Origin: Thermoplasmatota archaeon
GTDB lineage: Archaea; Thermoplasmatota; Thermoplasmata; Halarchaeoplasmatales; Halarchaeoplasmataceae
DNA: 46,153 nt
NCBI GenBank assembly: GCA_036626005.1
Contig: JAZKSP010000002.1
Coordinates: forward strand, 1-46,153
Direction of reading: 5' to 3'
The notes under the pieces are model-generated. The model worked only from the letters and a program-made list of their open reading frames with translations, was not told where the DNA came from and ran no database searches. Position 1 is the stretch's first letter. Every line of letters starts with the position of its first letter. The translations under genes were made by a program, and so were the position numbers. Below, piece by piece: positions 1,721 to 25,992 of this stretch.

Positions 1721-3286
1721 ATGATAAGTTCTGGATTCCTCTTGGCGCTGATACTGATCGTTGGCTTTATAGCAGGAATATTCATATTAGACAGATTCGA
1801 TTTGTTGGAACCTTTTGGTTTGGAAATGTCGGGCCCTCTCTTGATGTGGAAGACTAAAAAAGGTCGGGACTTGATAGACAGGATAGCCCAAAAAAAGCGT
1901 TTCTGGGAGATTTATGGTAATATAGGCCTGGTAGTAGTCGGCATAGCCATGGTCATCATTTTTTTAATGGTGGCCTTCAACGCATACATGGCTACAGCTA
2001 TTCCAGCTGAGCAGGCCCCAGATGCAAACGAGATCCTGGTGATACCTGGTGTGAATCCCTTCATACCTGTGGGCTACGGTATCTTAAGCCTTGCCGTGGG
2101 CATAATAGTACACGAATTCTCCCACGGTATACTTTCAAGGGCCGCCGACGTTGATATCAAATCCCTCGGGCTTATTTTTCTAGTGGTTCCCCTCGGGGCG
2201 TTCGTTGAACCTGATGAAGATCAGATAGAAGAAACGGAGAGGATCAAGAGGGACAGGATGTTCGCCGCCGGTGTGACCTCGAACATCGTTCTTGCAATAA
2301 TTCTTGTACTCGTATTTTCTACGGTATTCATGGGTTCAGTCTCCGCAGAAGAAGACGGCGTGATGATAAGAGGTGTCTATGAAGATACCCCTGCTGCCGA
2401 AGCGGAGATGCAGTCTTACGACCAGATATTGGAGATCGACGGAAAAGAGATCACAGGAACCAAAGATTTGGGATCACTGAATATAAACCTTACAGAAACG
2501 AATGAAGAGACCTTAAGAGAGGTCGATGTGAGTGTGAGGAAAGGGAAAGACTACCGAACTTATAAAAATGTGACAGTAGGACTGGTGGTCATTGGAATAC
2601 TGGAGGATTCTCCGGCTCACGATGCAGGATTAGAACCCGGGGCTATTCTATATCAGATCAACGAAACGACCATACATAATAGAAATGATCTAAGTGATGC
2701 ATTAAAAGGGAAGGACAAAATAAGCTTGAAGTACTGGCAGAAAAATAATTCAGAAGATGCTGAGTACAAAATAGAACAGGAAAACTTGACACTAGAAGAC
2801 GGACTTATGGGAATAAATATGGGATATTTTGGTCTAACGTATGAAGATGCTGATTGGTTACCTAAATTGCTTTCTAACCCTCTATCGGCGGGAAAAACGG
2901 GTCTACAACCGTTGAGGTTTTATTTCCAGAACGCAGCGACATATATAGCCCTTCCTTTACTTGGACTGTCCCCTGTACCTGAACAGCTTACCGGACTTTA
3001 CGAGATAAGCGGTCCGTTGTCAGCATTACCTACAAATGGGTTTTGGATCTTGGCTAATTCTATTTATTGGGTCTTCTGGTTGAATATACTCTTAGGTCTT
3101 TTCAATGCTTTACCTGCGATACCTCTAGATGGAGGTTATCTTTTCCAGGATGGTATCGAGGATTTATCCGAGAGATTAGGACTAAACGAGGATACTGGAG
3201 AAAAGTTATCTTCTGGAATGACCTACGCGCTAGCTCTCCTGGTTCTGTTCCTACTGATGTGGTCCATGATAGGTCCTAGAATATAA
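1721..3286 (+). CDS. Site-2 protease (peptidase M50) with internal PDZ domain
   Basis: HEFSHG (HExxH) lies in a TM segment. The C-terminal NALPAIPLDGG motif is present. A PDZ-like GILEDSPAHDAGLEPGAIL segment lies between them. Confidence 0.85.
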   Translation: MISSGFLLALILIVGFIAGIFILDRFDLLEPFGLEMSGPLLMWKTKKGRDLIDRIAQKKRFWEIYGNIGLVVVGIAMVIIFLMVAFNAYMATAIPAEQAPDANEILVIPGVNPFIPVGYGILSLAVGIIVHEFSHGILSRAADVDIKSLGLIFLVVPLGAFVEPDEDQIEETERIKRDRMFAAGVTSNIVLAIILVLVFSTVFMGSVSAEEDGVMIRGVYEDTPAAEAEMQSYDQILEIDGKEITGTKDLGSLNINLTETNEETLREVDVSVRKGKDYRTYKNVTVGLVVIGILEDSPAHDAGLEPGAILYQINETTIHNRNDLSDALKGKDKISLKYWQKNNSEDAEYKIEQENLTLEDGLMGINMGYFGLTYEDADWLPKLLSNPLSAGKTGLQPLRFYFQNAATYIALPLLGLSPVPEQLTGLYEISGPLSALPTNGFWILANSIYWVFWLNILLGLFNALPAIPLDGGYLFQDGIEDLSERLGLNEDTGEKLSSGMTYALALLVLFLLMWSMIGPRI

Positions 3287-4740: not shown

Positions 4741-4829
4741 GTTGTTTAGGTAGAGGCCAAAGTTTTTCCTGATGACTAATTTTTTATACTTTTTTCTACT
4801 ATAGCTCAACTGATGGAATTTAGGTGTTT

Positions 4830-6491
4830 ATGATGGTTGATATAAAAGCTCCCCGAGGGACAGAATTGACCTGCAAAGGCTGGAAACAGGAGGCTATGCT
4901 CAGACAGCTGAAGAATAATATGGAGAATGCGGAAGATCCAGATAATCTTATAGTCTACGGGGGTTCGGGAAAAGCCGCTAGGAATTGGGAGTGTTATGAG
5001 GAAATAGTTGAGACTTTGAAAGAATTGGAAAATGACGAAACTTTGATGATCCAGAGCGGTAAGCCGGTTGGTGTTTTTAAAACATTCGAAAGAGCTCCTA
5101 GAGTTATAATAGCAAATTCAAATATCGTACCTAAGTGGTCCACCTGGGACAAATACTACGAGTTGGAAGACCTAGGACTGATGATGTACGGACAGATGAC
5201 CGCGGGTAGCTGGTGTTATATCGGTACGCAGGGTATAATCCAGGGAACATACGAGACCTTTGCTGCTTTAGCCCGAAAACATTTTGACGGCACATTAGAA
5301 GGAAAATTATGCTTGAGCGGTGGTCTAGGAGGCATGGGTGGAGCACAGCCTTTGGCTATCAAGATGAATGGTGGTGTTGCACTTGTTGTTGAGATTAATC
5401 CAGAGATGGCTCAGAAAAGGTTGGATGCCGGTTACTGTGATGTTATCGTGGAAGACCTAGATGAAGCATTAGAACTAGCCTTAGAAGCAAAAGAAAATGG
5501 AGAAGCAAAATCTATCGGATTGATAGGAAATACCGCTGAAACACATCCCGAGATATTAGAAAAAGGGTTAATACCGGATGTGGTGACCGATCAAACCAGT
5601 GCACATGACGCGATGGCTTATTTCCCTAAAGGGCTAACCTACGAAGAAGGTTTAGAATTGAGGGAGAACGATCCTGAGGAATTCAAGAAAAAAGCTATGG
5701 AATCGATGAAGTTACACTGCAAGACTATGGTAAAGATGCAGGAAGAAGGTGCGATAGCCTTCGATTACGGGAACAACCTAAGAGGTCAGGCTAAAGATGC
5801 CGGTTTCGAGAACGCTTTCGCGTATCCGGGTTTCGTCCCTGCTTATATCAGACCGATGTTCTGTGAAGGTAGAGGTCCATTCAGATGGATGGCACTCTCC
5901 GGTGACCCAGAAGACATATTGAAAACTGATGAAGTCGTGAAAGAGTTGTTCCCAGAGAACGAGCAGTTGAAGAATTGGATAGATCTAGCTGAAGAACATC
6001 TTCCATGGGAAGGTTTACCCGCGAGAGTCTGCTGGTTAGGATATGGCGAAAGAGAAAAATTCGCCAAAAAGATAAACGATATGGTAGCCAGCGGAGAGAT
6101 ATCTGCACCGATCTCGATAACTAGAGACCATCTTGATGCAGGCAGCGTGGCAAGTCCAAACAGGGAAACTGAAAGTATGAAGGACGGAAGTGATGCCGTG
6201 GCAGATTGGCCTTTATTGAACGCCATGCTTAACCTGAGTGCAGGAGCTGACAGCGTCTCTATCCACAACGGAGGAGGGGTCGGAATCGGCTTATCTACTC
6301 ATGCTGGTATGGTCGTTGTAGCTGATGGAACAAAAGAGGCTGAGGAGAATATAGAGAGAGTGTTCAAGACAGATCCCGGTTCTGGTGTGGTGAGACACGC
6401 CGATGCTGGATACGAAAAGGCTATAGAATTTGCAAAAGAACATGACATAAAGATGCCGATGCTTGAAAGGCAGAGAAAAAAAGAGGAATAA
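4830..6491 (+). CDS. hutU: Urocanate hydratase (urocanase)
   Basis: Full-length family match: [38 protein letters not shown]. The ORF opens at GTG 4824. An AGGTG Shine-Dalgarno (SD) at 4822-4826 favours ATG 4830 or 4833. Confidence 0.93.
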
Positions 6492-10323: not shown

Positions 10324-12165
10324 TTACTCGAATTCGAAATTTTCCTCGGCCTTTTCTATGACCTTCTCTTTCTTCTCACTCGCTTCTTTCTTCAGTTCCT
10401 CACATCTATCTAAGATATCCTCTATGAACTCTTCGTCGTGGACATCCTTGAGATTGATCTTGACGTTAGCTATACCTCCGACAACTCCTGAATAGGCCAT
10501 CTGAGCTGAAACCAAAGCGTCGGTAATAGCGTCCTCTTTACCGTATTCAACCACTTCTTCAGCTAAATCCAAGACTTCGGCAGAAGTTTCGGCCGTATCC
10601 ATCGGGACTTTACAAGCGTGTTTAAGGCCCTCTTCCATCGCCTGTCTTCTCTTGTCTCTCTCCTCTTCGGTGGACTTCGGCATGTTTTTGGCTTCGATAT
10701 ATTTTTCGTAAGCATTGGTATCCTCGTCTACAACTCTTAATAGCTCGTCCTTTAATTCCTGTGCCTCTTCTGCTACCGGCATCAAAACAGAATCGATATC
10801 AGCGGTACCTCTTCCACCTGTACTGAGATTAGAAACCATCGAGGAAAGAGCAGCACCTATAGATCCAGAAAGGGCAGCAATGCTTCCACCTCCTGGAGTT
10901 GATGAATCCCGTGATACTTCATCGACGAATTCCTCGATATCCATATCGACAAGAGCCTCTTCAGGTTTCATAGGTCCACCGATCAACTTCTCATCCGGAT
11001 CGAATTCCGCCACGTCTCTGAGACCGAGAGACTGTATTGCTGTCTCTATTATATCCTCTCGAGGTATGCCCTTAGACTGATTCATCTTTTCTAGATAATA
11101 TTTTCCTGTTCTTAGCAGAGCTTCGTAAGGAGCAAGTCCTACAATCTCGCTCCCCGTTACTCTAACACCCATCTTTCTTGCCCTATCTTTAGCAAATTCG
11201 TAGACATCATGAAGGCTAGTCTTTTTGAAGTTGGTCAGGTTGATGGAGACTTGAGCCCGTTCGTATTCATCGACATACCAACCTATAGCTTTGCAGTGAT
11301 CGAATTCACCTCTCTTCTTCACAGCTTTTCCATCTAAATTATCTATGTCGTAATCGTATTCCTTCTCTAGGAACTCTTTGAGATCATAATCATGTTCTTC
11401 CTCCGTGTGTTCCCTCACCTCTTTAAAGGAATCTCCGATGAAATCGCATTCTCCACATGGGAATTCATCCCCGCTGTAACGATCTATCTCCCCTTTCCAA
11501 TAATGTTGGTCGGGGCTATTGACTCTTTTAGCCCTTCCTCTTTTTCTCATCTGTAGTGCTATATCCCAAGCGACCTTCTTGTTCTTAGTGTTTAGATTTA
11601 TGTTATAGGCTATTAGGAATTCTCGAGCACCTATCACAGTCGCTCCAGTTCTTTTGACTCTCTGGTTCCACTCCGCCGGTCCGTAATCGGGCTTCCAGTC
11701 TGGATCGATGAGTTTTTCATCTAGTCCTTCATACTCTCCGCTCCTTATGGTGGCGAGATTTTCTCTTTTTGGTTCTGTAGCGGCTTCTTCGTACAAATAA
11801 ACGGGGATCTCCAATTTTTCTCCGACTTTCCTTCCCAGTTCTTCCGCTAACTCCACGCAGTCTTCCATGGTTGTACCTTTCACTGGAACGAAAGGACAGA
11901 CGTCGGTTGCGCCCATCCGGGGATGGCTTCCCTCGTGTTGACTCATATCTATAAGTTCTGAGGCTTTCTTTATGGCGTTGAATGCAGCATCTTTCACACT
12001 TTCTAGAGGACCCACAAAGGTCACTACGGTCCTGTTAGTGTCTTCCCCCATATCTACATCCTTGACTTCTACACCCTCAAAGCTCTCGATCTCGCCAGTT
12101 ATCTCATCTATAACGCTCTCATCCCGCCCTTCTGAGAAATTAGGTACACATTCTACAAGTTCCAT
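10324..12165 (-). CDS. ftcD: Glutamate formimidoyltransferase / formimidoyltetrahydrofolate cyclodeaminase (fused FTCD)
   Basis: N-terminus MELVECVPNFSEGRD and HPRMGATDV are formiminotransferase motifs. C-terminal GGGSIAALSGSIGAALSSMV is the cyclodeaminase motif. Start set at ATG 12165, which has GGTGG 5 nt upstream. The ORF-track start 12270 adds 35 implausible residues. Confidence 0.9.
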   Translation of the reverse strand: MELVECVPNFSEGRDESVIDEITGEIESFEGVEVKDVDMGEDTNRTVVTFVGPLESVKDAAFNAIKKASELIDMSQHEGSHPRMGATDVCPFVPVKGTTMEDCVELAEELGRKVGEKLEIPVYLYEEAATEPKRENLATIRSGEYEGLDEKLIDPDWKPDYGPAEWNQRVKRTGATVIGAREFLIAYNINLNTKNKKVAWDIALQMRKRGRAKRVNSPDQHYWKGEIDRYSGDEFPCGECDFIGDSFKEVREHTEEEHDYDLKEFLEKEYDYDIDNLDGKAVKKRGEFDHCKAIGWYVDEYERAQVSINLTNFKKTSLHDVYEFAKDRARKMGVRVTGSEIVGLAPYEALLRTGKYYLEKMNQSKGIPREDIIETAIQSLGLRDVAEFDPDEKLIGGPMKPEEALVDMDIEEFVDEVSRDSSTPGGGSIAALSGSIGAALSSMVSNLSTGGRGTADIDSVLMPVAEEAQELKDELLRVVDEDTNAYEKYIEAKNMPKSTEEERDKRRQAMEEGLKHACKVPMDTAETSAEVLDLAEEVVEYGKEDAITDALVSAQMAYSGVVGGIANVKINLKDVHDEEFIEDILDRCEELKKEASEKKEKVIEKAEENFEFE

Positions 12166-12170
12166 ATTAT

Positions 12171-12175
12171 CCACC
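12171..12175 (-). promoter_or_regulatory. Shine-Dalgarno-like GGTGG for ftcD
   Basis: The minus strand reads GGTGG-ATAAT-ATG. Confidence 0.45.
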
Positions 12176-12548
12176 GATATTAAAATAGAGAAATATATGG
12201 AAGATAAAAAGATTTTGGAGGATGTTCGATAGATATTTTCTTTTACCTCCAAACGATTTCCTTCCCTCATATCATAAAATTATCCTAAAAGTTATGATCA
12301 TTTTAAAGTTGATAAAAGAAATAAAAACGCTAGTACTATACTCTTCGATAAGAAAACACAAATAACATTAATCCCTAAAATTCATATAAACAATCCCTAC
12401 AAAGTTATTAATGATTCTCTTTCATAAACCGCGTATCGGAAAGTTAAAATGAGAAAAAACAATAAACCTTATTCCTATAGTATGAATTAAGAGCAAAGCG
12501 AGGATATATATGAAACAGAAAATTAACCAGAAAATCACCAATATCAGG

Positions 12549-12553
12549 GGTGG
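12549..12553 (+). promoter_or_regulatory. Shine-Dalgarno-like GGTGG for the giant repeat gene
   Basis: GGTGG-AAGAA-GTG(12559). The spacing is the same as at ftcD. This argues for the GTG 12559 start rather than 12550 or ATG 12601. Confidence 0.4.
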
Positions 12554-12558
12554 AAGAA

Positions 12559-15500
12559 GTGTCCGGTAAATACCTCAAAGCTAGACAACTAGCAAAGGAG
12601 ATGGAGGAAAAAGCGAAGAAAACCGCCGAAAAGAAAAAGGAAGCTAAAAATAAAAAAGAGCAAGCTGAAGAATCACTTGAAATTATCAAATCCCTGAACA
12701 TAGATATAGAGTTGGAGGATCTACAGGAGAAATTCGAAAAGGGAGAAGAAGATTTAGATGATAAGGATTTTGAAAAGTCTTATGAAGTTTTTAGAAAGAT
12801 TATAGAAGAGATAAAAAGTAGAAGTTCAACGAGACATGATGAGATACTTAACCCGATCGAGGAGCTGGTCCAACAGGCCGGTGATGATTTAGAGTTTGAA
12901 TCGCTCCAAGAAAAGATAGATGAAAGCAGGGGTCTCTTCCAAGATAGAGAACTGGAAGAAGCTTTTCATAAAGCTTTTGAGCTCAAGGATGAATCAGACA
13001 AGGTGATAAATGATAGATTGAATGAAGAATTAGACAACTTAAAGTCGATTTTAGAATTGATAGATGAAGCTGATGAGGTAAAAGAAAAGATTAGTAAGTT
13101 TATTTCTAAAGCAGAATATTCACTCGAAGCTGACGATTATAGTAGAACCTTATCGCTTATAAAAAAGACAAAAGAAACATTTGGAGAGGAAGTAAAATAT
13201 AGTTTGAACAAGACGATAGAGAGGTTAAGGAAAAGAAAAGAAGGATTAGAAGAACAAGAAATCAACGTCCAAAATTCGGAGGAATTACTAGGGAGCGCTA
13301 GATCAAAACTAGAGGAAGGTAAATTCATAAAAGCATTCTCCTTAATCGAAAAAAGTAAAGATAAAATAAACCCGCTATTTGGAGAGGAAATACTGAGAGA
13401 CAAATTCAATAAATTGAATTATAAAATCAATGAAGCAGAAGATATTGGAGCCGAGACAGAGTCAATTAAAAAAATTAGAGAAGAAGCGAAAGAACTACAA
13501 GAAGAGAACAAAATAGAAAAAGCAGAAAGTCGATTGGAAGACGCTTTTGAAGAGATCGAAGAAGCAAAATTTGATAAGGTACTGAACACCATCGCAGAAT
13601 CTAGGGAGGATTTTATAAAAGCTAAAGAGATGGGGGCAAATATAGAAAAACCTATGCAATTATTGAAAAAGGCTAGAAATTCCTTAAGAGAGGATGATCA
13701 TAAAGAAGCCCTTGATTGGGCTAGAAAAGGGAGAGAAGAAGTCCAGAGTCTCACGAAAAAATTGGAAGAAGCTAAAAAAGATGTAGTAGAAAAGCGGGAA
13801 GTAGTGAACGGATTAAAAGAGGTCTTAGATGAAGACCTTTCAGATCTTGAAAATCTAATCGATAAGGCAGAGGAGGATCTAGAAGATAAAAAAACTAATG
13901 AGGCTATATCCAAACTAAAAAAAGTAAATGATAAGTTAGACGGCGAGGTTCGTGACAAAATTTTGAACTCTGTTGATGAATTTGACAGACTGAACAAGGT
14001 TGCTGAAGAATTCGGTATCGATATAAATAAATTTTCTAAACAAAAAGAAGAATCTAAGGCAAAGATCGATTCTTCCGAATATATTGAGGGATGTAAAATT
14101 GTCCAAGAAGGAAAAAACAAAGTCAAACAAAAGATAGAAGATGAATTGGATGAAAAGATACCAGAGTTAGAAAAAAGTTTGAGTGAATTCAAAGGACTCG
14201 ATAACGAGGTTAAAGAAGATATCGATGAGCTAATAGAAGAGAGTGAGGAAAAAATAAACGAGGGTTCCTATATATCTGGAGTAGAGAAGTTCAAAGAAGC
14301 AGAGGATATGTTTGAAGTGGCTAAAATAGAGACTGTTGAGGATCTCATAGAAAAAACTTCACAAGTTTTATCCGAGATTGAGGAAATGGATAAAGATTCA
14401 ATAGAACTAGGATCCTCTGAAGAAAATATTTTACTGGCAGGGATCGAGGAAGCTAAAAGTTCTATGAAAGAAGAGATGTATTCTGACGCTTTAGATACTT
14501 TAAATAACTATCTCTTAGAGTTTTCTGAGAAAATTCATACGAAATCCAAAAATGAGACTCAAAAAGCAGAAAAAACAGGAGTAGAAGTGGAACAACTGAA
14601 AAAAGAGCTAAAAAAATCTGCAGATAAAAGAGAAGAAGGATCCTACACTGAATCTATCCAGATATCAATAAAAGTGATGAAGAAAGCTGAAGAAAAACGG
14701 AAATTGAGAAAAGAAGCCTATGAAAGAATATACGATGGAAGTTCTAAGATATCTGAATTGAAAGAGAAAAACAAGCTTGAGGAAGGGGGGTCGATAAAAG
14801 AACTCTTAGAAAAAGCTAAAAAAGAATTTAAACAGAATAATTATTCAAGAGCCACCGAAAAGGCAGAGGAAGCCATAGATTCACTAGAAGATCGGGATCA
14901 GTTCTTCGATAGAAAAAAGGAGTTAGAGGATAAATTTGTAAAAGCAAAAAACATGGACATAGTGGATGGAGGTATAAAAAACTTTGATCCTGAAATCGAT
15001 AAGATAAATGAGATGAGCGAAGATATAGGGATGGCAGGTGCACTAGATAAATTAGAAGAGAAACATGAGGAATTGGAAGAACTTTTAGTGGAAATTTTAA
15101 ACGATAAGATAGAGGAAGTTGAAGAATTTATAAAAAATTCTGAGATGATGGGTTTTGAAGTAGAGGATTACAAAGACCAACTTGATAAAATAAGATTCTT
15201 GATGGATAGGGAAAAATCATTAGATGCACTGATATTTCTTGAAAAAATCGAAAAGGAAATGAAGGATATAGGGGGAAAGGAAGAGATCGCAAAAGAAAAA
15301 ATCGAAGAAGTGATGGTATTATTAAGAAAGGCAGAAGTTATGGGGGTGAACAGGAGCGGTTTAGAAAAACTCTTACACGAGGCTCAGAAAAAAATTGAAG
15401 AAGACAAATATGAAAAAAGTCTCCAAAAAGCTAGATCTGCAGAGAACAAGATAAGAAAAGCTCAAAAGAAAAGAGTTGAGAGTGTTTTAGAAAATTTTAA

Positions 15501-16917
15501 CCAGAAGATAGAAAAATTGAACGATAGAGATGTAGATACTACTCTCGCCGAAGATAAAATACAGAAGGCAAAAAAGGCTAAAGAAAAAGGGGACTATACA
15601 GAGGGAATAATATATGCTATGCAGAGCGAGGGGGAACTTGAGAAAATAAATAATCAGAAAATAATTGCGGGGAATATAATCTCTAGAACAAAAAAATTCC
15701 TAGAAGAGGTCGAAGATAAAGGGATATTTATTGATGAAGCTAAAGAGGATTTCCAAGAATGTGAGCAAGCTTATGAAAGTGGTTTTTATCCGAAAGCAGT
15801 TAAAAATTCCTTGATAACGGCAGAGAATTTAAGCAAAACCTTCCAAACCTATAATCGTCTAGATTCATTTTTAAAAAGTATAGATTTTTTAATCGATGAA
15901 TTCAAAAAAGCGAACAAAGATATACCTAAATTTTTAGAAGAAAAGGAAAAGATAGAAAAGAATTACCACGATGGAAAATACCAGCAAGCCGCAGAGCATA
16001 TGGAAAATTTAGAAGGAATACTTAGAGATCATGAAGATTATTTGAAAGATATTATTTCCCATGTTGAGAATGAAGTTGAGGAAGAGGGAATAAAAAATGA
16101 GCCAGAGGCGATGAAAAAACTAGAAAAAGCAAAATTTTTAATAGACTTGAAAAACCCAGTTAATAGTCTAAAAAATATCGAAGAAGCTAAAGAATTATCA
16201 GGATTAAAAAAGCTGAAGAGATATGATTCTCTGATGGAGCAAGTACACGAATCACTAGAAAATGCTAAAAAATTTGGAGCCTCTGTTGAAAGAGTAGAAA
16301 AAAGAATTAGAGAAGCAAAAGAGAAACAAAATACTGGAGATGTCGATAGAGCATATGAAAAGGTCGAACAGGCTAACGATATGGTTGAAGAAATTCTAGA
16401 GAGTCATAGTCCAAAACTTCGAGTGGAAGTTCCAGATACACTTACTATAAACGAATGGAACCCTGTTACTATTCAAATGATAAACCACGGAGAAGCCTTG
16501 GGGGAGAACCTACAGATAGAGCTTAGAGGAGGTGAATTAAGAAATTTCACCCCGGGAGAAAAATTAAAGGCTGGAGAAGAAAGAAATATCAACGTCAAGA
16601 TCAAGCCTGAAAAAGAAAATGCACTTCTAATCGCAAGAGTTCTTCGGATCTTCGATGATGAAGTATTTAAGGATGAACAAAAGTTGCAAGTAAGCATGGG
16701 ATCAAAGCTAAAGAAATTAGATGAAGAAGGAATCTGTGATCATTGTGGAGATAAAATCAAAAAGGGAGAAAAGATAATCCAATGTAGCTGCGGGAAAATA
16801 TATGAAATCTCCTGCGGAGAAGAGATAGGAGAGTGTAAAAATTGCGGAACTCGACTCAAAACCGAAGAGGAAAAAAGAAAAGAGAAAGAGAAAAAACGAG
16901 TTTCTCTTGATATATAG
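12559..16917 (+). CDS. Giant Glu/Lys-rich helical-repeat protein with C-terminal beta-sandwich-like segment and multi-Cys zinc ribbon (function unknown)
   Basis: 4.36-kb uninterrupted ORF with about 20 repeats of ~62 aa. I found no TM segment, signal peptide or Walker A motif. C-terminus: CDHC..CSC..SC..CKNC. Start is ambiguous (12550, 12559 or 12601). Confidence 0.85.
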   Translation: MSGKYLKARQLAKEMEEKAKKTAEKKKEAKNKKEQAEESLEIIKSLNIDIELEDLQEKFEKGEEDLDDKDFEKSYEVFRKIIEEIKSRSSTRHDEILNPIEELVQQAGDDLEFESLQEKIDESRGLFQDRELEEAFHKAFELKDESDKVINDRLNEELDNLKSILELIDEADEVKEKISKFISKAEYSLEADDYSRTLSLIKKTKETFGEEVKYSLNKTIERLRKRKEGLEEQEINVQNSEELLGSARSKLEEGKFIKAFSLIEKSKDKINPLFGEEILRDKFNKLNYKINEAEDIGAETESIKKIREEAKELQEENKIEKAESRLEDAFEEIEEAKFDKVLNTIAESREDFIKAKEMGANIEKPMQLLKKARNSLREDDHKEALDWARKGREEVQSLTKKLEEAKKDVVEKREVVNGLKEVLDEDLSDLENLIDKAEEDLEDKKTNEAISKLKKVNDKLDGEVRDKILNSVDEFDRLNKVAEEFGIDINKFSKQKEESKAKIDSSEYIEGCKIVQEGKNKVKQKIEDELDEKIPELEKSLSEFKGLDNEVKEDIDELIEESEEKINEGSYISGVEKFKEAEDMFEVAKIETVEDLIEKTSQVLSEIEEMDKDSIELGSSEENILLAGIEEAKSSMKEEMYSDALDTLNNYLLEFSEKIHTKSKNETQKAEKTGVEVEQLKKELKKSADKREEGSYTESIQISIKVMKKAEEKRKLRKEAYERIYDGSSKISELKEKNKLEEGGSIKELLEKAKKEFKQNNYSRATEKAEEAIDSLEDRDQFFDRKKELEDKFVKAKNMDIVDGGIKNFDPEIDKINEMSEDIGMAGALDKLEEKHEELEELLVEILNDKIEEVEEFIKNSEMMGFEVEDYKDQLDKIRFLMDREKSLDALIFLEKIEKEMKDIGGKEEIAKEKIEEVMVLLRKAEVMGVNRSGLEKLLHEAQKKIEEDKYEKSLQKARSAENKIRKAQKKRVESVLENFNQKIEKLNDRDVDTTLAEDKIQKAKKAKEKGDYTEGIIYAMQSEGELEKINNQKIIAGNIISRTKKFLEEVEDKGIFIDEAKEDFQECEQAYESGFYPKAVKNSLITAENLSKTFQTYNRLDSFLKSIDFLIDEFKKANKDIPKFLEEKEKIEKNYHDGKYQQAAEHMENLEGILRDHEDYLKDIISHVENEVEEEGIKNEPEAMKKLEKAKFLIDLKNPVNSLKNIEEAKELSGLKKLKRYDSLMEQVHESLENAKKFGASVERVEKRIREAKEKQNTGDVDRAYEKVEQANDMVEEILESHSPKLRVEVPDTLTINEWNPVTIQMINHGEALGENLQIELRGGELRNFTPGEKLKAGEERNINVKIKPEKENALLIARVLRIFDDEVFKDEQKLQVSMGSKLKKLDEEGICDHCGDKIKKGEKIIQCSCGKIYEISCGEEIGECKNCGTRLKTEEEKRKEKEKKRVSLDI

Positions 16918-16931: not shown

Positions 16932-17468
16932 TTGAAGTTATTATTGCATACATGTTGCGCACCCTGTCTGACTTATTCAGCCAAGGTGTTTAAAGAGAGA
17001 TATAAGAAGGTCACAGCTCTCTGGTTCAATCCGAATATACATCCTTTTAAAGAATATGAAAGACGCTATAAGGCCCTAGAAAATTTCGAAAATAAAAATG
17101 GCATGGGAATCATCTACTTGGATGATTACAGGTTAGAATCGTTTATAGAAGGAGCGATGGATACTGAACCTCGGTGCGAATTCTGTTATGAACTAAGATT
17201 GGGTAAAACAGCAGAAGTTGCAGCAGAACGAGGTTTCGATCATTTTTCTACAACATTGACCCTCTCTCCTTATCAGGACCATGAATTGATAAAGAGAGTG
17301 GGAGAAAAAATGGGTGAAAAAAATGGAGTCAAATTCATTTATGAAGATATGAGAGATGGGTTCTCAGAACATCACAAATTGGCCAATGAGATGGATCTTT
17401 ACAAACAGGGATATTGTGGATGCATATTTAGTGAAAAAGAGAGATATCAAAAAGAGTTATCTGAGTAA
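16932..17468 (+). CDS. queH: Epoxyqueuosine reductase QueH (DUF208 family)
   Basis: LLLHTCCAPC, NPNIHP..EY, CEFCYELRL, TTLTLSPYQ and YKQGYCGCIFSE all match conserved QueH blocks. TTG start with SD. Confidence 0.88.
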   Translation: MKLLLHTCCAPCLTYSAKVFKERYKKVTALWFNPNIHPFKEYERRYKALENFENKNGMGIIYLDDYRLESFIEGAMDTEPRCEFCYELRLGKTAEVAAERGFDHFSTTLTLSPYQDHELIKRVGEKMGEKNGVKFIYEDMRDGFSEHHKLANEMDLYKQGYCGCIFSEKERYQKELSE

Positions 17469-20292: not shown

Positions 20293-23200
20293 ATGAGTAT
20301 GGAAGGAGAATTAGGGGAAAGTGAGAAAAGTCTATTATCTCTAATCAAAAATGTACCCGGCATCGTTTACCGGTGTGAATTCGACAAAGATTGGACCATG
20401 AGATATTTGAGTGAGAGTTGCTCAGATATCACTGGTTACGAACCTTCTGAATTGATAGATAATAAAGAATTCACATGGGGAGAAATAATCCATTCTGAAG
20501 ATAGAGACAGAGTATGGGAAGAGATAAGTGAATCAGTGGAAAAGGACGAACAATATCAGGTAACTTACCGGATCAACACTAAGGGAGGAGAAGAAAAATG
20601 GGTGTATGAACAAGGCAACGCTATCAAAGACCAGGGAGGGAACATAGAGGAACTACAGGGCTTTATCACTGACATCACAGAAAAAATAAGAGAGCAAAAA
20701 AAATTAGAAGAGAGAGAGAAAAAAACAAAAGAGCTCTATGAGGCGAGTACTAAATTAGCAAACTGCAGGACAAAACAAGATGTTTATAAACTCGCTGTAG
20801 AATCCGCTGAAAAGATATTAGATTTTTATAGTAGTGCCCTTTTTATCGAGAAAAACGGAATATTAGAAGTTAAATATTCCCACAATCAAAGTTCTTTCGA
20901 AAAAGGAGATACACGTGCTGTGGAAAAAGAACGTTTAATGGCCCGCTCTTTTAAAAATAAAGAAGGCATTCTAGTCGATGATTTTGAAAGTAGAGAAGGG
21001 GTAGGAGTAACTCAAGAGGGCTTAAAGTCGGGTATTTCTGTTCCCATAGGTGATATTGGGCTGTTAGTAGCACCTTCTAAGAAAAAAAACTATTTTGATG
21101 ATTTCGACCTAGAGATGGCAAAAATTTTGGCTTCTCATATTAAAGAAGCTATTGAGCGTATAGAGTCCGAGAAGAAACTGGAAGATCTCTATAGGGCAAG
21201 TACTGAATTGGAAGAATGTAGGACAAAACAAGAAGTTTATGAAAAAGCCCTGCAGTATGCTAAGGATATATTAGATTTCTACGCTAGCGGCGTTTTTATT
21301 AAAGAAAATGATTACCTAGTAGGAAAGAAATTTACTGAAAAGAGCACAGGAACAAAAGGAAATCGCTATCCTATAACCGAGGGGATAAAAGGACTCAGTT
21401 TTAGAAATAAAGAGGCTATTTTAATTAGAGATCAAGAGAATTGGGATGAAATTGCCGCTTACCAGGAAGGATTGAAATCAGGTTTAAGTGTGCCGATCGG
21501 AGATAAGGGTGTTTTCCAAACCGTTTCAAAGGAAGTAAACTATTATGACGAGTTTGATCTCGAAATGGCAAAAATTTTGGCTTCTCATATATATGAATCT
21601 ATAGAGCGGATAGAGTCTGAAAAGGAAAAGTCACTCATTCTCGAGACTGCAGAAGAACACATATTGTATCTAGATACCGATTTAAATATAGAGTGGGCTA
21701 ATCAAGGTCTTAAAGAATATAGCGAATACGACAAAGATGTACTAATAGGTGAGAAATGCCATGAAGTTGTGAAAGACAGGTCTAAAAAGTGTGAAGATTG
21801 TCCTGTTGTCAAAGCTATCAATTCAGGAAAACGGGAAGAAGGGATACAGAAAGACGAAGACGGGAGATACTGGTTGATCAGAGCGACCCCTCGATTGGAT
21901 GAAGACGGTGAGGTCGAAGGAGTAGTTGAGATAGCTCTAGATATAACTAAAAGAAAGCGATCTGAAAAAAAGTTGAAAGAGAACAAGGAAAAGATAGAAG
22001 GTCTTTTAGAATCTACATCTCAATTAGAAAGACAACATGAAATCGACGATATCTACAAAGTAGCGATAGATGCGATAGAAAATATCCTAAAGATAGATTT
22101 TGGGGCAATATTTGTTTTAGAAGACGATGAATTTGTTCTAAAAGCCGAAACTTCTAGTACTCCTTCTCACGATTTTCAGGTTAGAGATAAAGATGACGGT
22201 GTACTAGGTAAAACATTTAGAACTAAGGAACCCGATATAACCGATGACATCCATAGCTCTCAAAAAGCTAAGCACCATTTTGAAGCATACAAATCAGGTA
22301 TTTCTGTTCCCATAGGAGACTTTGGAGTCTTCCAAGCTATGTCAAAAGAAGAGGGTCACTTTGATGAAGATGACCTAAACATGTTAGAATTGCTTTCTAA
22401 TCATATAAGTGAGGCAAGAAAAAGAGTCAAATTGCACGAAGAGCTCGAAAGAAGTGAAAAAAGATACAGAAGTTTATTTGAAGAATCGCCCATCTCCATA
22501 TGGGAGGAGGACTTCTCTGAAGTAAAGAGAAATATAGAAGATCTAAAGGAATCTGGAGTTGAAGACTTCGAAACATATTTCTCTGAAAATCCTAATGAAG
22601 TCAAGAAATTTACAGAGATGGTAGATATCAAAGATGTGAATAAAACAACTTTAGAGGTTTTTGGAGCTGAGAGTAAAGAAGAACTCTATGAAAATTTTGA
22701 CAAAATATTGAGAGAAGAAGGTCAAGAAGGGTTAATAAATGAACTTGTTGCAATAGCAAATGGTGAACAAACTTTCCAAACGAGTGAATTTGTAAACTAT
22801 ACTTTAGATGGAGAAAAAAGATATTTCTACTTGAAATGGGCGGTTACAAGTGAAGAGGAAGGAGATTATTCTGAAGTTATCGTGTCGCTAGTTGATATAA
22901 CTAGATTGAAAAAGACTCAGAAGAAGCTTGAAAAATCGGAAAAGAAATATCGTTCGATATTTGAAAACACGGGCACAGCGATGGTGATGATAGACGAAGA
23001 CAAAACGATTTCTTTAGTTAATGAGGAATTCGCACAAATAATGGGTTATTCTAAAGAGGAAATCGAAGGCAATATTAAGTGGCCCAAATTCGTTGCGGAG
23101 AAGGACAGAGATAGAATGATAAATTATCACCATAAAAGAAGAGAATCTCCTGGTAAAGTACCTTCAAATTATGAATTTACTATTATAAACAGATTTGGCG

Positions 23201-23658
23201 ATATAAAACACGTGGTTATTGAGGTCGGTTTGATCCCGGAAGCTGGAAAGACTGTTGCTTCTTTAATGGATATCACTGAGTATAAGAAAACTTTCGGAGC
23301 GCTAAGAGAAAGTCAAGAAGCCTTTAGACTTCTATTCGAAAATATAGATGATCCAGTAATATTAATAGATAAAGACCGACAGATAAAAGATGTGAATAAC
23401 TCGTTTCGAGATATGTTAGAATCCGAGGAAGAAGACATCATCGATAAATCTTATGAAGAGTTCCTAAGTGGTAAAACTGGGATGGACTTTGGTGAAAAAT
23501 TAGAAAAGATATTTTCGGGAAAAGAAGATGAATTCAAAAGCGATGTTCTTTTCATAACTGGAGAGAAAACCGAACTTCCGATGAATATCCAATGTGAACT
23601 AGTTAAAGATCACGAAGAAACCCCACTCTATGTTATAGGAATACTTCGACCTGCATAG
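20293..23658 (+). CDS. Multi-domain PAS/GAF sensor protein without recognisable output domain
   Basis: By eye: PAS(1-135), GAF, GAF (150-aa tandem), PAS with CxnCxxCP, GAF, then three PAS modules (YRSLFEESP, YRSIFENTG, FRLLFENIDDP). No HisKA H-box or HATPase N/G boxes were seen. Confidence 0.85.
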   Translation: MSMEGELGESEKSLLSLIKNVPGIVYRCEFDKDWTMRYLSESCSDITGYEPSELIDNKEFTWGEIIHSEDRDRVWEEISESVEKDEQYQVTYRINTKGGEEKWVYEQGNAIKDQGGNIEELQGFITDITEKIREQKKLEEREKKTKELYEASTKLANCRTKQDVYKLAVESAEKILDFYSSALFIEKNGILEVKYSHNQSSFEKGDTRAVEKERLMARSFKNKEGILVDDFESREGVGVTQEGLKSGISVPIGDIGLLVAPSKKKNYFDDFDLEMAKILASHIKEAIERIESEKKLEDLYRASTELEECRTKQEVYEKALQYAKDILDFYASGVFIKENDYLVGKKFTEKSTGTKGNRYPITEGIKGLSFRNKEAILIRDQENWDEIAAYQEGLKSGLSVPIGDKGVFQTVSKEVNYYDEFDLEMAKILASHIYESIERIESEKEKSLILETAEEHILYLDTDLNIEWANQGLKEYSEYDKDVLIGEKCHEVVKDRSKKCEDCPVVKAINSGKREEGIQKDEDGRYWLIRATPRLDEDGEVEGVVEIALDITKRKRSEKKLKENKEKIEGLLESTSQLERQHEIDDIYKVAIDAIENILKIDFGAIFVLEDDEFVLKAETSSTPSHDFQVRDKDDGVLGKTFRTKEPDITDDIHSSQKAKHHFEAYKSGISVPIGDFGVFQAMSKEEGHFDEDDLNMLELLSNHISEARKRVKLHEELERSEKRYRSLFEESPISIWEEDFSEVKRNIEDLKESGVEDFETYFSENPNEVKKFTEMVDIKDVNKTTLEVFGAESKEELYENFDKILREEGQEGLINELVAIANGEQTFQTSEFVNYTLDGEKRYFYLKWAVTSEEEGDYSEVIVSLVDITRLKKTQKKLEKSEKKYRSIFENTGTAMVMIDEDKTISLVNEEFAQIMGYSKEEIEGNIKWPKFVAEKDRDRMINYHHKRRESPGKVPSNYEFTIINRFGDIKHVVIEVGLIPEAGKTVASLMDITEYKKTFGALRESQEAFRLLFENIDDPVILIDKDRQIKDVNNSFRDMLESEEEDIIDKSYEEFLSGKTGMDFGEKLEKIFSGKEDEFKSDVLFITGEKTELPMNIQCELVKDHEETPLYVIGILRPA
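21031..21050 (+). repeat. 20-nt perfect direct repeat, copy 1 (copy 2 at 22297..22316)
   Basis: GGTATTTCTGTTCCCATAGG is shared by GAF1 and GAF3 (encodes GISVPIG). Confidence 0.9.
21115..21140 (+). repeat. 26-nt perfect direct repeat, copy 1 (copy 2 at 21565..21590)
   Basis: ATGGCAAAAATTTTGGCTTCTCATAT occurs twice, exactly 450 nt apart and in frame (encodes MAKILASHI in GAF1 and GAF2). Confidence 0.9.
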
Positions 23659-23887: not shown

Positions 23888-25180
23888 ATGATAAAAGTGA
23901 CCAAATCTAATTGTGGTAACTGGATTCGTAGTCCTTCCACATCCAACATAATAAGAATTATCGCTGTTATCCTTCTGATCCTAACGATCATTTTAACATC
24001 ATTTCAAATTCCGACTGCAGCTCAGGAAAATACCGTCTATTCTATAACCATAGATGGTGATATTGATGGGGGTACTTCTCATTACGTGGAAAGAGCGATC
24101 TCAAGAGCCGAGGAAGATGGAAGTCCTTTGATCATAAAGATAGATACACCTGGAGGTTTACTCAACCCCACTAAAGATATAGTGAATGAGATCCTTGGCT
24201 CCGATATTCAGGTGGTCACCTGGATCACTCCAAGAGGAGCTTGGGGTTATTCTGCTGGAGCTTTCATCACCTTGGCAGGGGACGTCGCATTTATGGATAA
24301 CGGTACGAGCATAGGTTCGGCGGAACCTAGACCCTCAGACAATAAAACCATCCAGGCAATGGCGAGCTGGATACAGGAGATAGCGGAGGAAAATGATAGG
24401 CCTGGTGATGTCGCTAGGAAATTCGTTACAGAAAATAAGAATATCGGAGCAGATGAGGCAGTTGAGATCGGCTTGGTAAATGAGACCGCCGAAAATGAGA
24501 GTGAAGTACTCGAAGCGATAGGAAGATCGGATTCAAATATAGAAGAGATCGAAAAGGGTCTCACCGATCAGTTACTGAGTCTGCTGACGAACCCGACTAT
24601 AGCTTTTCTTTTACTATTGTTAGGCGTATTAGGTCTGGTAACTGAGATCACCACTGGAGGTGTAGGTGTTCCAGGTATAGGCGGAGGCATAGCTTTGATC
24701 TTGGCGTTCATCGGCCTCATGATTCTAGAACTGAGCACTGTAGGGACCCTTTTGATCATCCTAGGTGTGGTACTTCTGACCGCCGAATATTTCGAACCGG
24801 GGTTCGGTGTTTTCGGTATCGGAGGGGCTATAGCTCTATTTTTAGGTATACTGTTCGTGGGAGACGAACCATATTTTGAGATCTCCACTAATATACTCAT
24901 GGGGTTAGTTGTCGTAATCATTGGAATCTCATTCTTCGTGATATGGGCCGTCAGAAGAGCTCAAACGAAAGAAGTGGAGACAGGGATGGAAACTATGAAG
25001 GGAACAGAGGGAAAAGTTACCAAACCGTTAGATAAAGACGGAGTAGTAAAGGTCAGAGGTGAAAGATGGGTAGCGACTTCGGATGAGACTATCGAAGAAG
25101 GAGAAAAGATAGTAGTAAAGGATATCATCGAAAAAGACGGTCAAACTACACTCCTAGTAGAAAAAGCCAAGGAGAAGTGA
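23888..25180 (+). CDS. NfeD-family membrane-bound ClpP-class serine protease (stomatin-specific protease type)
   Basis: Signal/TM segment, then a ClpP-like domain (IDTPGG, GYSAGAFI), then 4-5 TM helices, then a C-terminal NfeD OB-fold (GVVKVRGERWVATSDE). Confidence 0.85.
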   Translation: MIKVTKSNCGNWIRSPSTSNIIRIIAVILLILTIILTSFQIPTAAQENTVYSITIDGDIDGGTSHYVERAISRAEEDGSPLIIKIDTPGGLLNPTKDIVNEILGSDIQVVTWITPRGAWGYSAGAFITLAGDVAFMDNGTSIGSAEPRPSDNKTIQAMASWIQEIAEENDRPGDVARKFVTENKNIGADEAVEIGLVNETAENESEVLEAIGRSDSNIEEIEKGLTDQLLSLLTNPTIAFLLLLLGVLGLVTEITTGGVGVPGIGGGIALILAFIGLMILELSTVGTLLIILGVVLLTAEYFEPGFGVFGIGGAIALFLGILFVGDEPYFEISTNILMGLVVVIIGISFFVIWAVRRAQTKEVETGMETMKGTEGKVTKPLDKDGVVKVRGERWVATSDETIEEGEKIVVKDIIEKDGQTTLLVEKAKEK

Positions 25181-25185
25181 CGTCT

Positions 25186-25992
25186 TTACTCCTCCTCTTC
25201 GATTTCACTCTTCTTATTATGTTCTTCCAGTGCAGTGGTCAATCCAGCCACATTCCCTAGATCAGAACCGAGATTTGACGGGGTGACAACAACCAAATTC
25301 TGTTCCGTCGCTATCTCCACTAGAGTTTGCAACTCTCTGAGCCGCATCGCACCCTCTCTTTCTCCGTATATCTCTGCTGCATCGGCCATCTTTTTAGCTG
25401 CTTCTTCCTCACCTTGGGCTTTCTTGACCCTAGCTCGACGATTCCTTTCGGCCTCTGCCTGGCTAGCTATCGCTCTCACCATGTCCTTGGGTAGATTTAC
25501 GTTCCTGATCGTCATGTTGGTCACTTTCACACCCCAGGCGTCGGTCTCTTCGTCTATTATCTGTCTTATGTCTTCTGCTAATTCTTCTCTCCTACTCAAA
25601 AGTTCGTCTAGTTCCACTTTTCCCAGCACGTCTCTCAAGGTCGTCTGAGCCAATCTGCTTGTCGCTCTATAATGATCTTTGACTTCAAGGGTCGCTTTCT
25701 TCGGATCGAAGACCTTCATGTAAGCTACAGCATCTACATTGGCGCTGACATTATCTTTAGTGATTATGTTCTGTTCAGAGACATCCATATCTCTCACTCG
25801 AAGATCTTTCCACTCCAAGTCATCTATGAAAGGTATAATAAGAACAACACCAGGACCTTTAACACCTATGAAACGGCCGAATCTGAAATGAGAGACTCTC
25901 TTGTATTCCGGAACTTTATTCACCGCTCTAGTTAACAAGAGGATAAAGATCAATGCGAGAATTATTATGAGGACTATCATCCATGTAGGCAT
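25186..25992 (-). CDS. SPFH/stomatin-family (slipin) protein
   Basis: N-terminal TM, then VPEYKRVSHFRFGRFIGVKGPGVVLIIPFID, then a C-terminal coiled coil AQAEAERNRRARV. Confidence 0.9.
   Translation of the reverse strand: MPTWMIVLIIILALIFILLLTRAVNKVPEYKRVSHFRFGRFIGVKGPGVVLIIPFIDDLEWKDLRVRDMDVSEQNIITKDNVSANVDAVAYMKVFDPKKATLEVKDHYRATSRLAQTTLRDVLGKVELDELLSRREELAEDIRQIIDEETDAWGVKVTNMTIRNVNLPKDMVRAIASQAEAERNRRARVKKAQGEEEAAKKMADAAEIYGEREGAMRLRELQTLVEIATEQNLVVVTPSNLGSDLGNVAGLTTALEEHNKKSEIEEEE

Follow-up and report, generated by a model that had tools for sequence, protein, structure and literature searches.

The stretch of DNA studied here (the window) comprises 46,153 nucleotides from a Thermoplasmatota archaeon (contig JAZKSP010000002.1 of assembly GCA_036626005.1, positions 1 to 46,153). 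The window is an ordinary piece of archaeal chromosome, with hut genes, queH, the genes of aIF2-alpha and L44e, a PAS/GAF sensor, an NfeD/stomatin pair, a class V FBPase and DTD2. Among them lies a giant gene encoding a protein of 1452 residues with a molecular mass of 168 kDa. A first-pass annotation, made by a model from the letters alone, had described this protein as a large array of helical repeats. We analyzed the gene, its product and its relatives. It turned out that the protein carries 20 tandem units of ~63 residues, which are followed by a predicted beta-sandwich and a RING-like zinc finger (Table 1).

The coding frame in the first-pass annotation is real, and the open reading frame (ORF) 12550..16917 (+) is present. 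However, its mechanical start lies 9 nt before a GTG codon at position 12559. We moved the start to this GTG, because the motif M-x-G-K-Y-L-K opens all 50 aligned homologues. Residues are numbered here by the resulting window protein (P0001), that is, by the earlier numbering minus 3. The protein is strongly acidic (pI 4.9), with 18% Glu and 15% Lys. The maximum of its Kyte-Doolittle 19-residue average is 0.46; therefore, it contains no membrane segment. No hydrophobic signal-like stretch was seen at its N-terminus. Thus, the earlier statement that transmembrane (TM) helices and signals are absent holds, whereas the statement that other motifs are absent does not, since the C-terminal 170 residues form a beta-sandwich and an eight-ligand zinc finger. 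The net charge of the first 30 residues is +6. In the AlphaFold2 (AF2) model the first long helix spans residues 3–45, and residues 1–27 are predicted to prolong it as a free end.

Table 1. Positions of the giant gene, of the parts of its product and of the adjoining gene in the window
Feature	Positions	Strand	Residues	Basis or remark
Whole gene	12559..16917	+	1-1452	GTG start at 12559; 1452-aa protein and TAG stop
Basic N-terminal segment	12559..12639	+	1-27	conserved; (M)SGKYLKARQLAKEMEEKAKKTAEKKK
Array of 20 tandem units, ~63 aa each	12640..16407	+	28-1283	iterated unit model, secondary structure
Starts of units 1-10	12640, 12832, 13015, 13201, 13390, 13576, 13768, 13957, 14143, 14332	+	28, 92, 153, 215, 278, 340, 404, 467, 529, 592	
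Starts of units 11-20	14521, 14713, 14902, 15094, 15286, 15472, 15664, 15856, 16039, 16219	+	655, 719, 782, 846, 910, 972, 1036, 1100, 1161, 1221	
Unit 6	13576..13767	+	340-403	...KVLxTIAESRExFIKAKEIGADIxEPMxLLNKARxSLKxGDYKxALxWAxKGREKV; near-invariant columns
Unit 16	15472..15663	+	972-1035	GVDTALADNLI...GxYxEAINLAMQSEGELEKIELQQ
Beta-sandwich, CARDB-like	16408..16713	+	1284-1385	AF2, Foldseek, Pfam matches of orthologues
RING-like cross-brace zinc finger	16714..16854	+	1386-1432	Cys pattern, Prok-RING_1
K/E-rich helix and conserved basic tail	16855..16914	+	1433-1452	...KKRVSLDI-COOH; helix in AF2 model
queH (epoxyqueuosine reductase family)	16932..17468	+		Pfam QueH E 1.7e-58; 14 nt downstream of the giant gene; neighbour only

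A tandem array of 20 diverged units

To count the units, we used a hidden Markov model (HMM) that was seeded with 12 clear-cut units of P0045, a homologue of 20% identity, and then iterated over the family. The iterated model detected 19 units in the window protein, and one weak unit filled a double-length gap, which gives 20. The model trained on P0045 alone already detected 8 units. In the controls, 200 shuffles of the array gave on average 0.00–0.01 units, and the reversed sequence gave 0. The BLOSUM autocorrelation of the array has peaks at lag 62 (z 4.2), at lag 125 (z 3.4) and at lag 7 (z 6), the last being a heptad signal; there was no peak among the top lags at lag 34, the period of the tetratricopeptide repeat (TPR). 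These results confirm the ~20 tandem repeats of ~62 residues counted earlier by eye. The 20 anchor residues listed in that count correspond one-to-one to our 20 units and lie 40–49 residues into them (18 of them at 40–43), on or close to HMM position 42, where the unit model has a conserved Tyr/Phe. The four example strings quoted with them are all present in the translation. The regular expression offered for the recurring block matched literally in 2 units only, compared to 0 in 1000 shuffles, so it describes the block loosely and does not qualify as a true motif.

Identity between units within the window protein is ~13%, with a maximum of 29%, which indicates that the array is ancient. Tandem Repeats Finder revealed no ~186 bp period in the DNA, so the copies have also diverged at the DNA level. 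Both observations agree with the first-pass annotation, which had called the copies diverged, old and selected. The annotation had named orthologues without a conserved period as evidence that would contradict it. In the orthologues, however, the period is kept: the modal spacing of the units is 63 aa, and ~70% of 985 spacings fall within 61–65 aa. This rules out an artefact of Glu/Lys low complexity. Thus, the array is real, old and under selection, and it is the product of neither slippage nor low complexity.

A search with the whole protein gave 54 homologues and a second search, with P0045, gave 140; in all, more than 190 homologues were found. Nearly all of them are 1440–1510 aa long, with a coverage of 98–100% and identities down to ~20%. 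In the source databases they are entered as "hypothetical protein", "RING finger protein" or "TPR repeat protein". The organisms named for them are metagenome-assembled genomes (MAGs) of Thermoplasmatota. Two scans of species-representative genomes yielded ~130 loci, which belong to Thermoplasmata, Methanomassiliicoccales and the halo(alkali)philic Natronoplasma, Saliniplasma, Halarchaeoplasma and Haladaptatiplasma. A few loci are labelled Methanobacteriota or Euryarchaeota, which are older or broader archaeal labels. Labels from outside the phylum were also met, namely Aenigmatarchaeota (L016), Actinobacteria (L120) and Planctomycetota (P0194 and P0198); most likely, they are binning errors rather than cases of horizontal transfer. 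Never more than one complete copy of the giant gene was recovered per genome bin.

The number of units is 20 in the clade of the window and 21 in more distant clades. Such conservation of count and length would be expected if the length of a rod or the identity of each position matters. Units at the same position in different orthologues are more alike than units at different positions (mean BLOSUM score 1.19 vs 0.00 in the comparison with P0024). We expressed conservation as identity in close, mid, far and very far groups of homologues. For the N-terminal 27 residues these values are 96/83/86/35%. Unit 6 is the best-conserved unit (87/68/59/31%), and the range over the other units is 51–72%, 25–53%, 17–45% and 10–35% in the four groups. 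Unit 16 is a second hot spot (72/53/45/35%), and its conservation runs on into unit 17 (GFYVKAFD). Most units besides these two drop to 17–34% in the far group. The zinc finger is likewise among the best-conserved parts. Judging by its conserved columns, unit 6 is a candidate partner-binding site.

Predicted structure of the unit and of the C-terminal end

The consensus of the unit is KAEEKIEEAEELIEEAKEIGIDVEEAEELLEEAKEALEEGDYEEALELAEEAEEE. In its predicted layout, helix A is followed by a G-x-D loop and helix B, and a G-D turn then leads to helix C, which opens with Y-x-x-A. The unit profile contains three amphipathic stretches, with hydrophobic residues or Ala at a spacing of 3–4 (positions 2, 6, 9, 13, 16; 23, 26, 30, 33, 37; 42, 45, 46, 49, 52). 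They are parted by the conserved G20-x-D22 loop and G40-D41 turn. Using an alignment of 50 sequences, we built AF2 models of residues 1100–1452 (mean predicted local distance difference test score, pLDDT, 90.7; predicted template modelling score, pTM, 0.73) and of residues 1–1200 (pLDDT 82.3; pTM 0.39). In both models long helices of 38–43 residues strictly alternate with short helices of 13–19 residues; a loop of 3–7 residues follows each long helix, and a turn of 3 residues follows each short one. From this alternation it follows that helix C and helix A of the next unit would form one continuous helix. The predicted pattern suggests serial three-helix bundles with a continuous shared helix, as in spectrin, EzrA and Ebh/Embp. 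Judging by the secondary-structure pattern, helices A, B and C would pack into such bundles and the rod would be straight. The earlier idea of a rod or scaffold is thus borne out as far as the two models suggest a rod; a scaffold role would be a further step.

The closest architectural parallel is provided by the FG repeats of staphylococcal Embp/Ebh (FIVAR-GA; PDB 2DGJ, 6GV5), in which two three-helix bundles joined by a shared helix occupy 125 aa and ~70 Å (PMC7587433). There, tandem bundles of ~62 aa and ~3.5 nm each, with a long central helix common to successive bundles, form a rod (PMC7587433). The pattern of helix lengths predicted for the window protein is of the Ebh type. Thus, the earlier remark that a period of ~62 aa fits no known repeat class is not supported, because ~62 aa per bundle with a shared helix is the architecture of the FG repeat (PMC7587433). 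On the scale of Embp, a 63-aa unit would span ~3.5 nm and 20 units ~70 nm. From the helix lengths we estimate that the rod would be roughly 60–75 nm long, at ~3–3.75 nm per unit. However, no sequence similarity to Ebh/Embp was found, and the Ebh period is 125–126 aa and contains two different bundles instead of a single 63-aa unit. In addition, Ebh and Embp, adhesins of ~1 MDa, are bacterial proteins that are secreted and anchored to the wall, whereas the window protein comes from an archaeon, carries no export signal and has a zinc finger at its end.

Spectrin (PF00435) and EzrA (PF06160) are also serial three-helix bundles with a continuous C-to-A helix, an arrangement that the helix pattern suggests for our protein, and both are elongated cytoplasmic scaffolds with a defined number of repeats. 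The spectrin repeat, however, is ~106 aa long, against 63 aa in our protein, and EzrA has a TM anchor, which our protein lacks. EzrA has five repeats (PMC4243239), compared to 20 units here. Unlike spectrin and EzrA, our protein carries no module for binding actin or FtsZ.

Pfam and NCBIfam scans of the window protein gave nothing above cut-off. When 104 single units were compared with Pfam, the matches were scattered over 122 families, with at most five units per family; DUF5667, DUF4398, YfdX and DUF4363 were matched most (five units each). EzrA was matched by four of these units (best E 3e-4) and was also recorded for one homologue (P0028), and the SbsC spectrin-like repeat (PF22360) was matched by three (best E 0.015). 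Neither model matched the whole window protein. The spectrin model was absent for the window protein (E ≤ 1), for six homologues (E ≤ 0.1) and from the top 25 families of the 104 units. Another candidate for the family of the unit, PF26154, precomputed on ~15 homologues, was rejected: it is DUF8042, and the matches are only "faint". A search of the Protein Data Bank (PDB) with the full-length profile returned only RING fingers and de novo helical bundles. The Ebh/Embp structures 2DGJ and 6GV5 were not among the listed PDB profile matches or among the matches of Foldseek, which is weak for all-helical repeats. No paper was found in literature searches on Prok-RING in archaea, on spectrin-like proteins in Thermoplasmata or on PF26154. 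The earlier view that the unit belongs to no nameable sequence family is therefore upheld, since no Pfam, NCBIfam or PDB family covers it. The sequence family is undescribed in the resources searched, whereas its fold class is probably a known one.

A conserved (Y)SP motif joins the last unit to the beta-sandwich. In the AF2 model this domain has ~10 strands with pLDDT above 90 over ~100 residues, which corresponds to an Ig-like fold. Foldseek with the C-terminal model gave matches that were dominated by the beta-sandwich and told nothing about the units. For the sandwich, only Ig-like and beta-sandwich domains were returned, including CARDB 3idu (E 2.9e-3); MSP/VAP, TRAP-beta and complement MG sandwiches ranked equal to it or above it. 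Pfam CARDB (PF07705) matched 28 of 64 orthologues at E ≤ 0.01 and did not match the window protein; the relatives P0047 and P0053 score 25.4 and 40.2 bits against a cut-off of 22.7. The domain resembles CARDB (PDB 3IDU) in being a beta-sandwich of ~100 aa, placed here directly after the array. It differs in lacking a Pfam match and in belonging to a protein without an export signal, whereas CARDB domains are usually extracellular.

The zinc finger of the window protein has the pattern C1393-x2-C-x12-C-x-C-x4-[E1416]-x2-C-x6-C-x2-C1429; in the family pattern, His stands at the place of E1416. All proteins that have the finger share the seven Cys without exception. At the position of the fifth ligand, His is found in 34 of 50 and in 50 of 64 relatives, and the whole sub-clade of the window (P0001–P0015) has Glu, Asp or Gln there; in the window itself it is Glu1416 (codon 16801–16803). 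Judging by sequence, this replacement may reflect a second zinc site that is lost or altered, and Glu1416 could still be a zinc ligand. Prok-RING_1 (PF14446) was matched by 53 of 64 orthologues (E ≤ 0.01, best E 1e-9), and zf-RING_2 by 34 of 64. One relative (P0054) scores 54.8 bits, above the Prok-RING_1 gathering threshold of 29.1, whereas the finger of the window stays below it, with 12.7 bits for the whole protein and 16.3 bits for the C-terminal fragment. Thus, the family is likely homologous to Prok-RING_1, with a divergent copy in the window. The family profile also aligns across the whole cross-brace with the RING-H2 E3 ligases RNF165/Arkadia (RNF165 E 7e-6). Prokaryotic RING families were reportedly defined by Burroughs, Iyer and Aravind in 2011. 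At the level of the family, the finger resembles Prok-RING_1 and eukaryotic RING-H2 and RING-CH in its pattern of an eight-ligand C4-H-C3 cross-brace, here in C-terminal position. In contrast to Prok-RING_1, the window copy is below cut-off, has Glu for His and has a very short loop between ligands 6 and 7. In contrast to RING systems, no ubiquitin-like system was seen in the annotated neighbourhoods of the window protein. To our knowledge, a RING-like finger fused to a 20-unit rod and a beta-sandwich has not been described before. Sequence comparison points to the beta-sandwich and the finger as the only parts of the protein with recognisable relatives.

The protein ends in a tail motif, [KR][KR](V/L)x(L/M/F)x(I/L/V/F)(G)-COOH, at window positions 16894–16914. 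Examples are KRVSLDI, KRVALKI, KKLALKIG and RRLDMGIG. The motif recurs across the clade of the window and in some distant relatives, that is, in many but not all lineages. By its sequence it looks like a putative short linear docking motif.

Genomic neighbourhood and other carriers of the unit

At every locus the giant gene lies among housekeeping genes. Three classes of context were found. In the clade of the window (class A, ~40 loci) the order is giant gene > queH > < aIF2alpha < S27e < L44e, often with the gene of formiminotransferase-cyclodeaminase (FTCD) upstream. In class B (~60 loci) it is smc > scpA > scpB > giant gene > < hutH. In class C (~17 loci) it is FTCD > giant gene, with hutH 3.6 kb downstream. 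The queH neighbourhood, which the first-pass annotation had marked for checking, is conserved in the clade of the window. The median gap between the giant gene and queH in the ~40 class A loci is 11 bp, which makes co-transcription likely; thus, queH is probably co-transcribed with the giant gene. Archaea are not known to make queuosine.

Throughout the phylum, genes of histidine utilisation accompany the giant gene in all three classes. This is an unusually persistent synteny of functionally unrelated genes. In the window they lie at 4824-6491 (+) and 10324-12270 (-) and encode urocanase and formiminotransferase-cyclodeaminase; histidine ammonia-lyase is found in other clades (L004, L006, L007 and many others). 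A second large ORF in a similarly low-GC stretch, at 20293-23658 (+), was considered as a relative of the giant gene and rejected: it encodes an unrelated PAS/GAF sensor of 1,121 aa, with at least 4 PAS and 1–3 GAF domains and no output domain recognisable in the Pfam scan. Directly after the homologue of this sensor gene in L001 follow genes of a histidine kinase and a response regulator. An NfeD-type membrane protease at 23888-25180 (+) adjoins an SPFH/stomatin (Band 7) gene at 25186-25992 (-), a common prokaryotic pairing, and an S2P-type M50 protease with two PDZ domains is encoded at 1721-3286.

The unit is not confined to proteins of this size. We ran the unit profile exhaustively against 1.84 billion cluster representatives, and 3,489 of them matched at E ≤ 1e-3 and 301 at E ≤ 1e-30. 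A word-indexed search of 5.8 billion proteins with the same profile, unlike the exhaustive one, returned nothing. All named representatives that carry the unit belong to Thermoplasmatota. They are called "hypothetical", except for a few automatic JGI labels (RpoP, FliS). The largest are giants of ~80–90 units: P0056 with 7,686 aa and P0060 with 7,274 aa (MDP6154826.1, Candidatus Thermoplasmatota archaeon). If P0055 (3,904 aa) is included, the number of 63-aa units per protein ranges over ~50–90, and all three are annotated as hypothetical. The C-termini of P0056 and P0060 carry a zinc-ribbon-like tail, CPxC...K...V/I.

A second architecture, likewise conserved and of ~2,300 aa, has an N-terminal CxxC...CxxC zinc ribbon, ~17–20 units and a C-terminal DUF5915 (E 8e-12). 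It also contains two modules, each consisting of CARDB and a domain of ~120 aa that is roadblock/LC7-like by eye and has no Pfam match. Members of this class are P0053 (2,279 aa, L005:8001-14840), P0089, P0102, P0116, P0124, P0128, P0129, P0140 and P0185. In L005, the gene of P0053 adjoins transketolase/transaldolase genes and FEN1. Signal-peptide-like N-termini were found in a few unit carriers that are otherwise unrelated (P0142, P0163 and P0153).

A possible fixed-length scaffold and its alternatives

We propose that the giant gene product is a cytoplasmic, acidic rod in which the 20 units would fold into as many small three-helix bundles. In each unit the third helix would pass unbroken into the first helix of the next, which would give a single stiff rod. 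Its sites of interaction would be the basic N-terminal helix, the conserved units 6 and 16 and, at the other end, the beta-sandwich, the RING-like finger and the tail. Such a rod may serve as a fixed-length scaffold, spacer or tether that binds partners at both ends and at particular internal units and so keeps them at a fixed distance from each other; its ends may also mediate self-association. The cytoplasmic location is suggested by the absence of a TM segment and of an N-terminal hydrophobic stretch and by the seven invariant Cys of the finger. Our analysis shows the repeats, how they are conserved, which domains the protein contains and that it has no TM segments; the helix pattern is a prediction, and the bundle packing, the rod length and the scaffold role are inferred. 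The architecture of a 20-unit rod is, in our opinion, very probable. The statement as a whole, that a cytoplasmic rod of fixed length acts as a scaffold, spacer or tether, is one that we favour only slightly over its negation.

Several results weigh against this proposal. The pTM of the model of residues 1–1200 is only 0.39; such a low value means that the model does not fix the global shape. When this 1200-aa model was compared with the PDB by Foldseek, for which all-helical repeat queries are a hard case, the best E was 0.065, no spectrin, EzrA or Ebh structure was found, and vinculin and catenin had TM-scores below 0.1. Five class B orthologues (L054, L058, L069, L073 and L074) contain no trace of the finger and end directly after the beta-sandwich (...WEQVFQIKVK..), so the finger end is not essential everywhere. 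A fixed copy number would also fit a multi-site adaptor for which length does not matter. Finally, no cultured carrier was found in the two genome-collection scans and the two protein searches, which gave only MAGs.

A more specific version of the scaffold is that the rod is a partner of SMC-ScpAB and tethers or spaces SMC-bound DNA, possible anchors being the envelope and the site of division. In one large clade, which comprises MAGs of Methanomassiliicoccales and of other Thermoplasmata, smc, scpA, scpB and the giant gene follow each other on one strand wherever upstream DNA is available. This order was seen in ~20 and ~40 loci in the two scans; ScpA and ScpB were present in 41/41 class B loci and SMC in 40/41. 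In two loci scpB overlaps the giant gene by 4 nt, and in one locus of the window's clade (L014) smc lies ~9.7 kb upstream. The predicted rod length is of the same order as the SMC coiled-coil arm, which measures ~50 nm (PMC4255302). However, unrelated neighbours are nearly as conserved, namely hutH (41/41), a lactamase-B-fold gene (34/41) and SAM synthetase (32/41); therefore, the smc block looks like synteny by descent, and the link to smc is weak. Usually, scpB and the giant gene are separated by 83–178 bp (median 132), which leaves room for a separate promoter. Moreover, FTCD and not scpB is upstream in the clade of the window and in the third clade, and smc is absent from the 46-kb window. 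We consider a partnership with SMC unlikely.

The finger raises the question of whether the protein is a RING-type E3-like ligase, in which the finger would recruit a charged conjugating enzyme of the E2-like or SAMP/ubiquitin-like kind, while substrates would be presented by the rod. The spacing of the full eight-ligand cross-brace and the matches of the family to RNF165/Arkadia and Prok-RING_1 given above are in line with this. Nevertheless, the finger of the window is below the Prok-RING_1 cut-off, its His ligand is replaced by Glu, and some orthologues have no finger. Only 6 residues separate ligands 6 and 7, and the HMMER alignment has a gap of 4 where RNF165 has WLAM; in eukaryotic RINGs the equivalent region is the E2-contacting helix. 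The genes with Pfam annotation in the window and at the examined loci included none for an E1, E2, ubiquitin-like or JAB protein. Ligase activity of this kind is thus distinctly improbable.

We also compared the rod with a TPR-like alpha-solenoid, an adaptor or co-chaperone whose hairpins would stack into a superhelix with a peptide groove. The unit profile searched against all PDB sequences matched only TPR, pentatricopeptide repeat (PPR) and designed helical proteins, and only over positions 37–55. The matched stretch is the GDYxxAxxxAxxA hairpin, that is, the last 18 residues of the unit resemble a TPR hairpin and align (as xxGDYxxAxxxAxxA) to helix A, turn and helix B of the consensus TPR. 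This hairpin, which runs from the end of helix B through the G-D turn to the Y-x-x-A of helix C, fits the signature xxGDYxxAIxxYxxALE, and the "half-TPR" remark of the first-pass annotation was to the point. There were also weak sub-threshold matches to ANAPC3, TPR_2 (4 of 104 units) and TPR_16 (2 of 104), and JGI names three homologues TPR proteins. However, only 18 of 60 profile positions are aligned, each stretch scores 7–11 bits, and no TPR family matched the window protein in Pfam at cut-off or even at E ≤ 1. A TPR has two short helices in a 34-aa period and forms a solenoid, in contrast to three helices per 63 aa, one of which crosses between units; the continuous helices of 38–43 residues in the AF2 models differ from the TPR pattern of 12–15. 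A solenoid of this type is therefore highly unlikely.

A secreted or envelope fibre or adhesin, similar to CARDB-containing archaeal proteins or to the Ebh/Embp and SbsC rods, is hardly to be expected: although the sandwich is CARDB-like, the nearest architectural analogues are surface proteins, and three otherwise unrelated unit carriers have signal-peptide-like N-termini, the family has no signal peptide, TM segment or anchor, its zinc finger is rich in Cys, and its N-terminus is a conserved charged helix. The last explanation, that there is no real repeat and that the eye was misled by a Glu/Lys low-complexity coiled coil, could appeal to the composition and to the strong heptad signal but is refuted by the controls (0 vs 19 HMM units), by the 8 units found with the P0045-only model and by the constancy of period and count in the orthologues.

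Returning to the fixed-length rod, its predicted architecture would be a new form of the spectrin/EzrA/Ebh-type rod, with a single-bundle period of 63 aa, a conserved count of 20 or 21 units and an ending of beta-sandwich and RING. The family lies outside every curated family searched and is so far confined to Thermoplasmatota. Rods of three-helix bundles organise membranes and division machinery, as spectrin and dystrophin do in eukaryotes and EzrA does in bacteria. We know of no comparable rod family described in archaea, and literature searches aimed at an archaeal three-helix-bundle rod family found nothing. The giant protein is thus a candidate ruler, scaffold or skeleton protein of archaea that can be put to the test. 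Its widespread RING-like finger, carried on a rod, may give a handle on the function of RING in organisms without a recognised ubiquitin system, and the 63-aa unit may be of use in protein engineering as a new natural repeat scaffold.

Many Thermoplasmatota lineages have been reported to lack a rigid cell wall. It is conceivable, although we think it doubtful, that the 63-residue unit belongs to a spectrin-like cytoskeletal system. In such a system the giant protein would be a strut of ~70 nm that self-assembles or bridges by means of its N-terminal helix and its beta-sandwich/RING end and links the membrane and/or the SMC-organised chromosome, and the relatives of 2,000–7,700 aa with 25–90 units would be longer members. 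If this spectrin-like reading is true, the family would represent a previously unrecognised class of archaeal cytoskeletal proteins.

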